Shown piece by piece: positions 24,249-32,275 of a DNA stretch of 43,075 nucleotides. Origin of the DNA: Candidatus Coatesbacteria bacterium (GTDB taxonomy: Bacteria > JAFGND01); NCBI GenBank assembly GCA_016927185.1, contig JAFGND010000101.1, positions 1 to 43,075 of the forward strand, written 5' to 3'. A program made the position numbers and the translations under genes. A model generated the notes under the pieces. The model was not told where the DNA came from, searched no databases, and was given only the letters and a program-made list of their open reading frames with translations. Positions within the stretch are counted from its first letter, which is position 1. Each line of letters opens with the position of its first letter.

Positions 24249-25529
24249 TTATTTCTGATTAATTTTAGCTATCCTTTTTGTTTCTCCTCCAGCTTTCACT
24301 ATATATACTCCCTCTCTCCAGCTGCTTGTATCAATTGAATGTTTGCCTTTGTCTAGCTTCATAATAAGCTGACCAGTAAGGGAATAGATAAAAGCAGAGG
24401 AAGGAGAGGAAATTGATAATCTGTTAGTAAATGGATTTGGGGAAACTGAGAAGGATTTGGCTGGAATATAAGAAGCTGATTTTTCCTCTTCAAGTCCAGT
24501 TTCCTCATATGTTTCTATAGCATAAAGATAAGTATCCCAACTACCAACAAAAACAATTCCATCTGAGACACAAGGAGAGGAGAAAACATAACTATCTGTC
24601 TTATATCTCCATTTAAGAGTTCCATTTGAGCAGTTTATTGCATAAAGATAAGTATCATAACTTCCAACATAAACAACTCCATCTGAAACACAAGGAGATG
24701 AGCTAACTTCATAACCTGTCTGATATCTCCATTTAAGAGTTCTATCTGAGCAATTTATTACATAAAGATAATTATCACAACTTCCAACATAAACAACTCC
24801 ATCTGAAACACAAGGAGAAGAGTAAATATAATAACGTGTCCCATATCTCCATTTACCAGTACCATCTGAGCAGTTTATTGCATAAAGATTATGGTCATTA
24901 CTTCCAATAAAAACAACTCCATCTGAGACACAGGGAGAGGACCAATAAATATTCCGGTCTGTCTGAAATCTCCATTTAAGAGTTCCATCAGAGCAGTTTA
25001 TTGCATAAAGATAATAATCCTCACTCCCAACATAAACAACTCCATCTGAGACACAAGGAGAGGAGGAAATATAAAGACCTGTCTGATATCTCCATTTAAG
25101 AGTTCCATTTGAGCAATTTATTGCATAAAGATAATTATCCAAACTTCCAACATAAACAACTCCATCTGAGACACAAGGGGAAGACCAAACATAACTATCT
25201 GTCTTATATTTCCATTTAAGAGTTCCATCTGAGCAGTTTATTGCATAAAGATAAGTATCATCACTTCCAATATATACAATCCCATCTGAAACACAAGGGG
25301 AGGAATAAACTTTATAACCTGTCTGATATCTCCATTTAAGAGTTCCAGCTGAGCTGTTTATTGCATAAAGATAATCATCAGGACTTCCAACATAAACAAC
25401 TCCATCTGAGACACAAGGTGAGGAGTAAACATCATCACCTGTCTTATATCTCCATATCAAATCTCCGGGAGATGAGGAAAGCATACTAGATAAAGATAGC
25501 AAAATTATAATTAATAACAATCGTTTCAT
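24249..25529 (-). CDS. Secreted 8-bladed PQQ-like beta-propeller with T9SS-type C-terminal domain (paralog A)
   Basis: Signal peptide; eight SSPCVSDGVVYVGSxDxYLYAINCSDGTLKW repeats; C-terminal SPNPF...IYSLTGQLI...GVYIVK...KIN. Confidence 0.92.
   Translation of the reverse strand: MKRLLLIIILLSLSSMLSSSPGDLIWRYKTGDDVYSSPCVSDGVVYVGSPDDYLYAINSSAGTLKWRYQTGYKVYSSPCVSDGIVYIGSDDTYLYAINCSDGTLKWKYKTDSYVWSSPCVSDGVVYVGSLDNYLYAINCSNGTLKWRYQTGLYISSSPCVSDGVVYVGSEDYYLYAINCSDGTLKWRFQTDRNIYWSSPCVSDGVVFIGSNDHNLYAINCSDGTGKWRYGTRYYIYSSPCVSDGVVYVGSCDNYLYVINCSDRTLKWRYQTGYEVSSSPCVSDGVVYVGSYDTYLYAINCSNGTLKWRYKTDSYVFSSPCVSDGIVFVGSWDTYLYAIETYEETGLEEEKSASYIPAKSFSVSPNPFTNRLSISSPSSAFIYSLTGQLIMKLDKGKHSIDTSSWREGVYIVKAGGETKRIAKINQK
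24514..25456 (-). repeat. Intragenic tandem repeat of about 8 x 120 bp (one 123-bp unit)
   Basis: The same gtct.a.at.tccat motif starts at 24961, 25081, 25201, 25321 and 25441, an exact 120-bp period. Confidence 0.95.
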
Positions 25530-25539
25530 TTTAACCTCC

Positions 25540-26812
25540 TTAATTTACCTTCACAACTCTCTTGCATTCTTTCCCAGCCTTCACAATATAAACTCCCTCT
25601 CTCCATTTGCTTGTGTCAAGAGAATGTTTGCCTTTGTCTAGCTTCATAATCAACTGACCAGTAAGGGAATAGATTGAAGCAGAAGAAGGAAGGGAAATTG
25701 TAAGTCTGTCAGTAAATGGATTTGGGGAAACTGAGAAGGATTTGGATGGAATATATGAAGCTGATTTGTTAGCCTTGAAACCAGTATATCCATAGGTTTC
25801 TATAGCGTAGAGATAACTATCAAGACTTCCAACATAAACAACTCCATCTGAGACACAAGGTGAGGAGTCAACCCAGATACCTGTCTGAAACTTCCATTTA
25901 AGAGCTCCATCTGGGCAGTTTATTGCATAAAGATAATTATCCTGACTTCCAATATAAACAACTCCATCTGATATACAAGGTGAGGAATAAATATATCTAC
26001 CTGTTCTATATTTCCATTTGAGGCTTCCTGTTGAGCAGTTTATTGCATAAAGAGAAAAATCCCGACTTCCAACGTAAACTACTCCATCTGAAGCACAAGG
26101 GGAAGAGAAAACCCAAGATTCTGTTTCATATCTCCATTGAAAAGACCCATCTGACTTATTTATGGAATAAAGATACCAATCATTACTTCCAACAAAAACA
26201 TCTCCTGCTAAAACGCAAGGGGAAGAATAAACTTCACTGTAAGTTTTATATCTCCATTTCAGGTTAGCATCTAAACTACTTATTGCATAAAGATAAGTAT
26301 CATTACTTCCAAAATAGACAACTCCATCTGAAATACAAGGAGAGGAGAAAACATACCAGCCTGTCTTATATTTCCATATAAGAGAACCATCTGAGCAGTT
26401 TATTGCATAAAGATAATAATCATCACTTCCAATATAAACAACTCCTTCTGAAATACATGGAGTTGAATGAATAGCATCACCAGTGAGAAATCTCCACTTA
26501 AGAGAACCATCTGAACAGTTTATTGCATAAAGATAATTATCTTCGCTTCCAACATAAACAACTCCTTTTGAAACAGATGGAGATGGATCCCAACTATCTA
26601 TCTTTAATCTCCATTTAAGAGTTCCATTTGAACAGTTTACAGCATAAAAGTAATGATCAGTACTTCCCAATATAAGCAACTCCTTCAGAGACACAAGGGG
26701 AGGATTTATAAATACCACCGCCTGTCTTAAACTTCCATTTCAAATCCCCAGGTGCTGAATAAACAATGCTAGTTAAATAAAGAAAAAAAGTTACAAATAT
26801 AAAGGTCTTCAT
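25540..26812 (-). pseudogene. Beta-propeller/T9SS-CTD paralog B with a +1 frameshift in blade 1
   Basis: True start at 26812 (SD GGAGG) gives MKTFIFVTFFLYLTSIVYSAPGDLKWKFKTGGGIYKSSPCVSEGVAYIG. An extra base at about 26666-26668 (GGGAAGT versus GGAAGT in sister repeats) gives TGA at 26657-26659. The rest continues in the track ORF 25540..26718. Span 1273 = 3n+1. Confidence 0.85.
25798..26745 (-). repeat. Intragenic ~120-bp blade repeats of paralog B
   Basis: Recurring tattgcataaag and acttccaa.ataaacaactcc units at about 120-bp spacing. Confidence 0.9.
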
Positions 26813-26823
26813 TCTAACCTCCT

Positions 26824-30923: not shown

Positions 30924-30930
30924 ATTCACT

Positions 30931-30950
30931 AAATCAGATGCTTCTGATTT
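30931..30950. terminator. Hairpin between convergent genes, possible bidirectional terminator
   Basis: AAATCAGA-tgct-TCTGATTT perfect 8-bp inverted repeat just after the M20 stop. Confidence 0.5.
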
Positions 30951-31006
30951 TCAGTACTGTCAGTTATGCTTAAGTCAATTGTTTTTCAAGCAGGGGGAGA
31001 AGAAAC

Positions 31007-32275
31007 TTACTTTATCTTAATAATTCTCCTTGTATTCTCGCCAGAACTGACTATATAAACTCCTTCCCTCCAGCTTCCTGTATCAATTTCATGACTGCCT
31101 TTTCCAAGTTTAATAATCAACTGTCCGGTAATTGAATAGACTGAGGCATCTGACAGAGAAGATATGGAAAGCCTGTCTGTAAAAGGATTCGGACTGACAG
31201 TGAAACTCTTTGATGGCAATTTAAAAGCTGTTTCCTTGTTGCTGAAGCCTTTATATCCATAAGTCTCTACTGCATAAAAATAGCAGTCATGGCTTCCAAC
31301 AAAAACTGCACCTTCAGATACACATGGTGAAGCTCTTATAATGCCACCAGTTTTGTAACTCCATCTTACTGAACCATCAACTATATCCAATGCATATAGA
31401 TAATTATCATTGCTTCCAACATAAAGGACTCCATCAACCAGGCAGGGTGATGTATAAACTGGTCCAGATGTATAAATTCTCCATTTCAATGTTCCATTAT
31501 TTTCATTAAGAGCATAAACACCATTATCAAGGCAACCAACATATAAAACTCCATCAACTATGCATGGGGAAGAAAAGATATATGAATCAGTAAGGTATTT
31601 CCATTTGAGTGAACCGTCAGATGTATTAAGTGCATAAACATTGAAGTCATTACTTCCAACAAAAACAACTCCATTAGAAACACATGGTGATGAATAAATA
31701 TCCTCGTTTGTCTTGTATCTCCACTTCAAGGATCCATCAGGTGCGTTTATTGCATAGAGATAGTCATCCCAGCCACCAACATAAACAACACCATTATCAA
31801 CGCAGGGTGATGAGTAAATAAAATATTCTGTCTGATATTTCCATTTCAGGCTTCCGTCATTTACATTAACAGCATAAAGGTTATTGTCATAACTTCCAAC
31901 ATATAGAACCCCGTCTGCAACACAAGGGGATGAATCTACCCAGAGATAAGTCTCATGTCTCCATTTCAATGCTCCGTTAGCAACATTGATGGCATAAATA
32001 TAAAAATCATCCCCGCCAATATAAACCACTCCGTCTGCAACGAAAGGAGAAGAATAAATATCGTGTCCTGTCTGGTATTTCCATTTGCGAACTCCATTAG
32101 TTGTGTTCAATGCATATAGATAATTATCCCAGCTTCCGAACAGAACAGTTGTTCCGGTAACGCAAGCAGAAGATCTTACTTTATCCCCAGTTTCATATTT
32201 CCAGAGCATTTCTCCAGGACCAGATAACAAGTAAGAAAATGAAAAAAATACTATCAAAACAATTAAATTCTTCAT
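31007..32275 (-). CDS. Secreted 8-bladed PQQ-like beta-propeller with T9SS-type CTD (paralog D)
   Basis: Signal peptide, eight SSPCVxDGVxYVGSxDxxLYA repeats and a SPNPFTDRLSIS...GVYIV...IIKIK CTD. Confidence 0.92.
   Translation of the reverse strand: MKNLIVLIVFFSFSYLLSGPGEMLWKYETGDKVRSSACVTGTTVLFGSWDNYLYALNTTNGVRKWKYQTGHDIYSSPFVADGVVYIGGDDFYIYAINVANGALKWRHETYLWVDSSPCVADGVLYVGSYDNNLYAVNVNDGSLKWKYQTEYFIYSSPCVDNGVVYVGGWDDYLYAINAPDGSLKWRYKTNEDIYSSPCVSNGVVFVGSNDFNVYALNTSDGSLKWKYLTDSYIFSSPCIVDGVLYVGCLDNGVYALNENNGTLKWRIYTSGPVYTSPCLVDGVLYVGSNDNYLYALDIVDGSVRWSYKTGGIIRASPCVSEGAVFVGSHDCYFYAVETYGYKGFSNKETAFKLPSKSFTVSPNPFTDRLSISSLSDASVYSITGQLIIKLGKGSHEIDTGSWREGVYIVSSGENTRRIIKIK
31262..32205 (-). repeat. 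Intragenic 120-bp blade repeats of paralog D (more diverged at DNA level)
   Basis: 40-aa periodicity; recurring ccatt, gcata and ccaac motifs every 120 bp. Confidence 0.85.

Follow-up and report, generated by a model that had tools for sequence, protein, structure and literature searches.

A large family of predicted secreted eight-bladed propellers with hypervariable loops in a Candidatus Coatesbacteria genome

Contig JAFGND010000101.1 of a Candidatus Coatesbacteria bacterium (assembly GCA_016927185.1) was analysed over a stretch of 43,075 nucleotides (nt), referred to below as the window. Between positions 24249 and 32275 it carries four paralogous genes, here designated A to D, that encode repeat proteins of the beta-propeller type. 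Their repeats, or blades, combine a nearly constant framework with two loops that differ from blade to blade. The question raised by this locus is what has kept the framework uniform, what has driven the loops apart, and what such proteins might be used for. A preliminary description of the window had proposed an antibody-like or variable lymphocyte receptor (VLR)-like family of exported binders, diversified by blade shuffling. The analysis reported here suggests that A-D are probably an inherited set of surface binding modules of the adhesin, lectin or capture type, which would recognise many ligands and which have been diversified by selection. On balance, the genes appear to belong to a lineage-specific birth-and-death multigene family of about 82 loci, many of them arranged in head-to-tail, operon-like arrays.

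Fold and predicted export of the four proteins

The coordinates of the four genes, all located on the minus strand, were confirmed in the list of open reading frames (ORFs) of the window. Genes C (26824-28077), B (25540-26812) and A (24249-25529) are the first, second and third members of a tandem array, and D (31007-32275) is an older, more diverged member of the same architecture, with a blade synonymous p-distance of 0.65-0.67. Each protein consists of eight units of about 40 residues, each of which opens with the Trp of a W-R-Y strand. At the DNA level, both A and B have a 120-nt period according to Tandem Repeats Finder, which counted 7.8 copies in A (82% matches) and 7.5 in B (71%). In A, a predicted signal peptide is followed by the eight blades of the propeller (24510-25454, minus strand) and by a type IX secretion C-terminal domain (24252-24476, minus strand). 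The same parts are present in C, where the propeller with its eight PQQ-like blades lies at about 27076-28002 and the C-terminal domain at about 26827-27051, both on the minus strand.

All four proteins exceeded the cut-offs of the propeller models PF13570 (205.7-284.8 bits, cut-off 133), PF13360 (136-166.8 bits, cut-off 27.6) and PF01011 (43.6-77 bits, cut-off 26.7); the scores of C were 205.7 bits for PF13570, 143.1 for PF13360 and 35.6 for PF18962, the model of the C-terminal domain. The cut-offs of the BamB equivalog models were missed (TIGR03300, 152.9-215.0 vs 285.2; PRK11138, 130.1-171.4 vs 423), as were those of the PQQ dehydrogenases (TIGR03075, 73.4-111.8 vs 480; TIGR03074, at most 30.4 vs 832). 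Judged by these domain matches, A-D are members of the PQQ-like/BamB-like propeller family and of the type A cargo class of type IX secretion. The suggestion that no catalytic domain is attached was borne out, since a Pfam search found none in A-D or in eight other family members; these eight, which are longer or otherwise unusual, had no additional Pfam domain.

The AlphaFold2 model of A, built from a 20-sequence alignment, had a mean predicted local distance difference test (pLDDT) score of 89.6, and of about 98 in the propeller. In the model, 32 strands form eight blades over residues 24-339, followed by a disordered linker and a beta-sandwich tail. The top Foldseek match was Cake8 (6tjg), with a target-normalised template modelling (TM) score of 0.95, a root-mean-square deviation of 1.0 and 46% identity. 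BamB (24-26% identity) and YxaL (32-33%) came next, with a probability of 1.00 and query-normalised TM scores of 0.67-0.71. Being a designed protein, Cake8 has blades that are all identical and lacks a diversified face, and the match shows how consensus-like A is; as modelled, gene A encodes a protein close to an idealised symmetric eight-blade propeller. BamB and YxaL (PDB 3q7m and 7dxn) have their fold and repeat family in common with A-D. However, A-D differ from BamB in having a type IX secretion domain in place of the lipoprotein anchor and in having far more uniform blades. Each protein would accordingly be a single rigid PQQ-like propeller of eight blades that carries no enzyme domain.

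The type IX-type C-terminal domain noted in the preliminary description was recovered with models from both Pfam and NCBIfam. The C-terminal domains of A-D scored 29.7-35.6 bits with PF18962 (cut-off 27) and 27.5-31.8 bits with TIGR04183 (cut-off 23). In the model, the N-terminus of A is a hydrophobic helix (residues 2-14) followed by a low-confidence linker, and most members of the family have similar N-termini. A SprA-like gene (summed score 406.4 bits, against a cut-off of 200) is present in the genome, as are two genes for PorU sortases that scored 561.6 and 557.7 bits (cut-off 420). Together with a PorV-like match below its cut-off, which is considered below, these genes make export by the type IX system plausible. 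The signal peptide would export each protein, and the C-terminal domain would pass it through the type IX system. Surface attachment is known for type A cargo of this system, and by analogy the exported propellers are probably attached to the cell surface. Like such cargo, A-D have a sorting domain above the cut-offs, together with what is probably a signal peptide, in a genome with SprA-like and PorU genes. Known type IX cargo, however, consists mostly of enzymes and adhesins in modest numbers, whereas here 65 of the 113 ORF segments with a family-type C-terminal domain, identified with a hidden Markov model (HMM) of the family's own domains, carry propeller blades. Across the whole assembly, 48 ORF segments have the same type of C-terminal domain but no blades, which indicates a large further set of cargo with a closely similar tail.

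Location of the variable sites and evidence for selection

The assembly comprises 2.99 Mb in 109 contigs and is 93.4% complete, with an estimated contamination of 0.61%. Its six-frame ORF segments were searched with a blade HMM built from the blades of the window, which gave 483 blade matches in 88 segments; 40 of the 88 had exactly eight matches and only one had nine. Variability was measured on the 320 blades of the 40 eight-match segments, with 40 columns counted from the Trp as column 1 (in a 41-column alignment of the window blades, the B-C loop is placed at 26 and 28). The highest column entropies were found at columns 8 (3.96 bits), 10 (3.67), 25 (3.62), 27 (3.60), 7 (3.10), 4 (2.88) and 34 (2.85), and columns 1, 11-13, 21, 23, 26, 30, 31, 37 and 40 were below 0.9 bits. 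The proposed division into a constant framework and hypervariable loops was therefore confirmed, and a per-column likelihood test, described below, placed the concentration of variation far beyond chance.

According to the DSSP assignment of the model, columns 5-13 form the D-A loop (residues 30-38 of A), columns 25-27 form the B-C loop (residues 50-52), and column 4 is the last residue of strand D, adjoining the D-A loop. Both loops belong to one and the same "top" face in the standard propeller topology. On the basis of the confident eight-blade model and this topology, the variable residues would be located in the D-A and B-C loops, in agreement with the original proposal. In blade 1 of A, the hypervariable residues are 32, 33 and 35 (D-A loop) and 50 and 52 (B-C loop); over all eight blades, columns 7, 8, 10, 25 and 27 amount to 40 hypervariable codons within 24510-25454 on the minus strand. 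The D-A and B-C loops would thus make up the working face, to which each blade would contribute five or six codons, giving 40-48 residues in the whole protein.

The eight loop pairs quoted earlier for A and the three examples from B, C and D were all exact, and none was repeated among the blades of A-D; genome-wide, 319 of the 320 loop pairs were distinct. Relative to the genome, the hypervariable sites were enriched in Trp (4.3-fold), Tyr (3.5-fold), Asn (2.8-fold), His (2.1-fold) and Asp (1.8-fold), so that the reported enrichment of Tyr, Trp and Asp was upheld and Asn can be added to it. The fraction of aliphatic residues was 0.10 vs 0.32 in the genome, and Lys and Pro were strongly depleted. 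A composition rich in Tyr, Trp, Asn and Asp and poor in Lys and aliphatic residues is that of binding surfaces. If A-D are binders, every blade and every protein would present a different surface of this kind.

Selection was assessed by several counts. Within genes, the proportion of synonymous differences (pS) at framework sites was 0.20 in A, 0.41 in B, 0.52 in C and 0.65 in D. Thus, the statement that the frameworks of A-C are nearly invariant even at synonymous sites applies strongly to A but more weakly to B and C. Nei-Gojobori counts among the blades of each gene were used to obtain nonsynonymous (dN) and synonymous (dS) divergence. In A, the framework dS was 0.23, and dN reached 0.90 at six sites chosen post hoc, which is 3.6 times the overall dS; at eleven loop columns fixed beforehand the ratio was 1.86, and in the framework dN/dS was 0.37-0.38. 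The six-site ratio was 1.7 in B and C and 0.9 in D, where synonymous sites are near saturation. Changes from the consensus codon were also counted, under a star phylogeny, in 56 blades from seven genes, selected post hoc because their frameworks were the most uniform. Here pS was 0.194, and the ratio of nonsynonymous (pN) to synonymous differences was 1.95-2.8 at columns 7, 8, 10, 25 and 27 (binomial P of 1e-7 to 3e-21). In the 15 closest gene pairs, hypervariable dN divided by framework dS was 2.1-5.5, with framework ratios of 0.19-0.41.

A self-written site-wise likelihood test under the GY94 model gave a similar picture. In this test, 34 columns were each compared with omega = 1 under Bonferroni correction. 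Branch lengths and synonymous rate were held at the values that IQ-TREE had fitted to the framework, for which omega was 0.237 and kappa 2.84. Omega was 2.5, 2.1, 4.1, 5.5, 3.6 and 2.9 at columns 4, 7, 8, 10, 25 and 27, respectively; these six columns were above 1, 24 were significantly below 1, and four were indistinguishable from 1. A dN/dS above 1 at some six codons of each blade, and clearly below 1 in the framework, had been expected and was borne out in several counts, and a control on the same codons points the same way.

In this control, synonymous third-position transitions were found in 29 of 391 hypervariable NNY codons (7 of 313 at columns 7, 8, 25 and 27) and in 69 of 739 framework NNY codons, and positions 1 and 2 of the hypervariable codons had 0.515 changes per site. 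The Asp of column 26, wedged between columns 25 and 27, was encoded by GAT in 72 of 75 blades, and where Asn was kept at columns 7, 25 and 27 the codon was AAT in 17 of 17, 20 of 20 and 16 of 17 blades, respectively. Genome-wide, the C-ending share of these codon pairs is 22-26%, so equilibrium is far off at the third positions of the hypervariable codons. It follows that the loops do not predate the framework, which speaks against the objection that homogenisation has reset the framework clock while the loops are old. In addition, codon choice depends on position: Gly is GGT at column 6 and GGA at columns 18, 23 and 37, Ser is TCA at columns 16 and 35 and AGT at column 24, and Ile is ATA at column 32. 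Such position-specific choice indicates common descent of the DNA and not codon bias. In the mechanism that we propose, positive selection on amino-acid change would drive the loop codons apart.

Size, arrangement and history of the family

The family proved far larger than the four genes visible in the window. Of its 82 loci, 33 are intact and encode a signal, 7-9 blades and a C-terminal domain in a single frame; contig ends interrupt another 22, 5 are split by a frameshift or stop, 15 are partial or divergent, and 7, B included, have 7-9 blades but no recognisable signal or family C-terminal domain. Their combined length is 96 kb (3.2% of the assembly). When protein A was used as the query, the home genome had 57 matches; among 40 other genomes, related to it only at the domain level, 20 had matches, with a highest count of 14. 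The five genomes with the closest relatives had 1, 2, 10, 6 and 4 matches to protein A. Among the closest outside relatives, contigs C55 and C14 of one comparison genome (G043) contain open frames of 2046 and 2846 residues with several propeller matches each at 51-60% identity; judged from these frames, they would encode giant multi-propeller proteins in place of many single-propeller genes.

In the C-B-A array the genes follow one another head to tail with spacers of 10-11 nt. The true start of B is an ATG at 26812, 11 nt past the stop of C, and A starts 10 nt past the stop of B. B is broken in blade 1: the frame that opens at ATG 26812, with the signal peptide and the start of blade 1, ends at 26657-26659, and a three-frame reading shows that the remainder, with blades 1-8 and the C-terminal domain, is encoded in a different frame, the listed 392-residue frame at 25540-26718, which has no signal peptide. 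B may be a real pseudogene or an assembly error. Among 37 upstream regions of family genes, compared by eye, at least 10 continue directly from the end of the preceding member's C-terminal domain, in the order stop, ribosome-binding site, start codon. Another group of genes, including C, has a common leader of about 75 nt. In the window this putative leader or promoter-proximal region corresponds to 28078-28152 on the minus strand, with approximate boundaries; it resembles the upstream regions of five family genes, on contigs C7, C90, C8, C32 and C101, when the last 75 nt before each start codon are judged by eye. Operon-like tandem arrays thus appear to be common in the family, and their members may be co-transcribed. 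Such arrays are probably also the cause of many contig breaks.

When the nearest blade was identified from framework nucleotides for each of the 320 blades, it lay in another gene and at another position in 238 cases, in another gene at the same position in 61 (39 expected), and in the same gene in 21 (7 expected). The predicted intermixing of blades across genes and positions was therefore observed. In the closest gene pairs, same-position and shifted-position comparisons gave equal values, and there is almost no positional homology of blades between genes. Within-gene framework nucleotide identity formed a continuum from 0.91 to 0.52, with A at the top of the 40 genes. A was also the best partner of 23 of the 39 other genes, which places it closest to the common blade of the family.

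The propellers and tails of the same genes differ in apparent age. This comparison covered 595 pairs of the 35 genes with eight blades and a C-terminal domain. In the 20 pairs with a blade-framework pS below 0.35 (the core genes, 0.23-0.33), the pS of the C-terminal domain was 0.37-0.75, with a mean of 0.60. Tandem neighbours can show the reverse, as in a pair on contig C18 (tail 0.21 vs blades 0.71) and a pair on contig C32 (0.32 vs 0.64). The discordance indicates that, in the core paralogues, renewal or exchange has affected the propeller DNA separately from the rest of the gene. In the proposed mechanism, recent re-amplification or an exchange of propellers between paralogues would have kept the framework of the core genes nearly uniform at the nucleotide level.

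Contigs of four metagenome runs were compared with 22000-28300 of the window. Because short contigs of the paralogues cross-map within the genes, only contigs anchored in the unique flanks could be read. In two biogas-fermenter runs, contigs anchored upstream of C covered 27913-28300 with 27 differences in 388 nt; among the differences listed, codon 27973-27975 (column 10 of C blade 1) was wholly replaced, an anecdotal case. Contigs of run X1 matched parts of the window exactly, for example over 22577-24408 with 0 differences, and X1 may be the window's own source. In runs X3 and X4, compared over 22000-24100, contigs from biogas-fermenter and other metagenomes matched the unique flank of A at about 96-98% identity, and a second set matched it at about 87-90%. 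These flank matches indicate that close relatives occur beyond the sediment sample that best holds the window. A metagenome scan for syntenic loci with the M20 peptidase gene of the locus found only 3 distant loci, at 29-36% identity.

Interpretation, related systems and gene neighbourhood

Several observations weigh against regarding A-D as selected surface binders. The PorV-like gene of the genome scored only 140.2 bits vs a cut-off of 250. At E ≤ 1e-20, 3530 database proteins match A (7999 candidates scored); they span archaea and many bacterial phyla and, where a name is given, are annotated as PQQ-binding-like repeat proteins, BamB and Ser/Thr kinase fusions. In 750 blades from 112 proteins outside the genome, the same columns were the most variable (8, 4.12 bits; 10, 4.02; 25, 3.82; 27, 3.38; 4, 3.30; 7, 3.10), and the combination of constant framework and variable loops is therefore generic to these propellers. 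The present genome stands apart in how far the family has expanded, in the uniformity of the framework at the nucleotide level, in the excess of amino-acid change that was measured, and in the type IX tail. In the tests of selection, the hypervariable columns and the set of "young" genes were picked post hoc, the blade tree is weakly resolved, and recombination violates the single-tree model of the likelihood test. On the clock of the C-terminal domain (pS about 0.6), a loop pN of about 0.55-0.6 gives a ratio near 1, so positive selection is claimed mainly on the strength of the same-codon control. Finally, long identical tracts between blades were not in excess, with a mean longest run of 18.7 nt vs 16.7 under a site-aware null, and 0 blade pairs had an identical run of 60 nt. 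The sole near-identical pair was blade 7 of A and blade 7 of the gene on contig C7, with 5 differences in 120 nt. Ongoing exchange was thus not demonstrated, and the blade shuffling of the preliminary description left no direct trace; the discordance between propellers and C-terminal domains was seen instead.

The loops might also record escape and not binding, if phages, predators or competitors had pushed apart the exposed loops of abundant coat or receptor proteins that they recognise, perhaps with few copies expressed at once. We regard this as unlikely, but it is a live alternative and does not exclude a binding role. It agrees with the export and type IX secretion features, with positive selection confined to exposed loops, and with the replacement of the hypervariable codon 27973-27975 in contigs of a close relative; the many decayed copies (5 split, 7 without signal or C-terminal domain, B frameshifted) are typical of contingency families. 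Escape, however, would be expected to produce mainly differences between strains, whereas here all blades and paralogues differ, as the 319 of 320 distinct loop pairs attest. In addition, the make-up of the loops is that of a binding surface, and the surroundings of the genes showed no invertible promoter, recombinase or silent-cassette arrangement. It is less probable still that A-D are ordinary paralogues with relaxed loops, in which the excess is only apparent because gene conversion or codon bias has deflated the synonymous divergence of the framework. The variability of the same columns in the 112 outside proteins fits such an explanation, as does the ratio of 0.9 or less in D, the oldest of the four paralogues. 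Moreover, the C-terminal domains of the core genes have a pS of 0.5-0.7, far above the 0.23-0.33 of their frameworks, which indicates that the framework clock was reset. But the synonymous sites in and between the hypervariable codons are as uniform as those of the framework, as seen for column 26 and for the AAT of kept Asn, and transitions at 7 of 313 third positions stand against about 0.5 changes per site at positions 1 and 2. Codon usage in the genome would allow 22-26% of C-ending codons, and neutrality would lead to an omega of 1, not of 2-5.

Two further explanations seem very improbable. It might be suspected that a diversity-generating retroelement or a mutator targets the loop codons for programmed hypermutation, since many codons look like AAT altered at its adenines and column 7 is NNT in 51 of 54 non-gap codons (56 blades). 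This candidate came close to being refuted. No reverse transcriptase was found in the 93.4%-complete genome (PF00078, 0 matches; a control search matched 3 of 14 known genomes), the framework adenines are invariant, and not all changes are at adenines: TGG, GAA and AGA, which are common at these sites, cannot be reached by adenine changes alone, and the first-position T of column 8 was changed in 44 of 78 blades. Such a mechanism would also have to act on about 480 blades spread over 82 loci, and no template repeat lies close by. Known retroelement targets resemble the propellers in having hypervariable, often NNT, codons on an exposed surface of a constant scaffold; they differ in having a reverse transcriptase, adenine specificity and a template repeat, and in having one site where there are hundreds here. 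It is just as hard to believe that the family was inflated in assembly or binning by repeats of several organisms that were collapsed or chimerically joined. The 22 loci cut by contig ends in an assembly of 109 contigs, the heavy cross-mapping of short contigs from the four runs onto the repeats, and the frameshift of B, which could be an error, would be in keeping with an artefact. However, 33 loci are complete, each with its own loops, and lie inside contigs among ordinary genes; the estimated contamination is 0.61%; and the signal peptides, C-terminal domains and position-specific codons are common to the family. The exact match of the X1 contigs to the window agrees with a correct assembly, though as X1 may be the source this match is not independent.

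Selected surface binding thus remains the preferred reading of A-D, but the comparison with antibodies and VLRs, which carries the implication that diversification is somatic or programmed, was not sustained: no reverse transcriptase, no adenine-specific mutation pattern, and no recombinase or cassette beside the genes was found. The family is better regarded as analogous to the WD40 repeats of the fungal HET-E/NWD proteins. In the parts of the Podospora anserina study considered here, ten HET-E/HET-D/NWD genes have WD40 repeats in concerted evolution, with positive diversifying selection acting on four interaction-surface residues in each repeat (Paoletti, Saupe and Clave 2007, PMC1805685). 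As in that system, the repeats described here are highly similar within and between paralogues, beyond what gene history would predict, and a few codons of the interaction face are under positive selection in each repeat, five to six here vs four. The fungal proteins, as described there, are intracellular, of the STAND/NLR type, with a WD40 fold, a variable number of repeats and a role in allorecognition. The bacterial family differs in its PQQ-like fold, its predicted status as exported cargo, its approximately 82 loci and a blade number essentially fixed at eight. A NACHT/STAND NTPase of the HET-E/NWD type was not found, as Pfam gave only propeller and type IX domains in A-D and the eight other members; nor were ongoing repeat exchange or a variable repeat number observed, given the absence of a tract excess and the single segment with nine blades. 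The likeness is one of mode of evolution and not of membership. A bolder interpretation, which we offer tentatively and with some doubt, is that the family is an extracellular bacterial counterpart of the fungal repertoire. It would comprise dozens of surface "receptors" with faces of 40-48 residues, continually renewed by re-amplification or exchange of a master blade and by positive selection, for an open-ended, inherited recognition of cells, phages or polymers in sediment and digester communities.

In a cross-genome survey of highly repetitive propellers, the passages available to us describe near-identical blades, a continuum from young to diverged forms, and many copies disrupted by frameshifts or stops, with the PQQ family forming 1.7% of the highly repetitive set (Pereira and Lupas 2022, PMC9218822). 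The identity continuum of 0.91-0.52 fits the cycle of amplification, differentiation and decay set out in those passages. The survey, so far as these passages go, is not concerned with a secreted family of 82 loci in one genome, and the terms "positive selection", "loops", "hypervariab", "gene conversion" and "recombination" do not occur in them. No description of such a family was found in the literature covered, which did not extend to most subscription journals and supplements. If our interpretation is correct, a mode of evolution known from fungal immune-type WD40 proteins would also act on exported bacterial proteins of a different propeller lineage. The approximately 480 natural blades share a near-ideal eight-fold scaffold with 46% identity to a designed propeller, and such a library could inform attempts to engineer propeller-based binders. 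The 3.2% of the genome given to the family would represent a major investment in the cell surface by an uncultivated lineage of sediment and biogas-fermenter metagenomes.

An additional feature of the framework is the presence of two cysteines per blade (columns 14 and 34), or sixteen per protein, which are near-fixed in the core genes. The same columns are mostly Ala in the outside proteins, and the cysteines are therefore lineage-specific. Strand topology would place the eight column-14 cysteines in a ring around the upper end of the central channel, where metal binding, redox chemistry and inter-blade contacts are possibilities. An intra-blade disulfide between columns 14 and 34 was judged unlikely on strand topology alone, as one Cys would be near the top and the other near the bottom.

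Three unrelated genes, encoding a cytidylyltransferase-like protein, a DUF58 protein and the M20 peptidase, are located between the array and D. The other neighbours of the four genes are likewise ordinary and encode MatE, a permease, a PNPOx-like protein and an ABC ATPase. Annotation of the genes adjoining A-D revealed no recombinase, reverse transcriptase, regulator or cassette, and Rfam detected no RNA family in the window. Beside D, an ORF of 164 residues (33247-33741, plus strand) with no Pfam match opens with a lipoprotein-like signal whose last residue is Cys and continues with a stretch rich in Asp and Asn and a run of Gly-Thr repeats. A Cys followed by a Gly-Thr linker also takes the place of the usual signal peptide in a few family members that have no type IX secretion tail (C79:13855-15228, C53:87896-89086 and C74:32141-32629 of this assembly), and these may be lipid-anchored versions of the same putative binders. 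The propeller genes are flanked by two large minus-strand ORFs, of 508 residues (22067-23593) and 684 residues (33734-35788), neither of which had a Pfam match at E ≤ 1e-5. The product of the former is rich in Glu, Lys and Ile and has a hydrophobic N-terminal segment.

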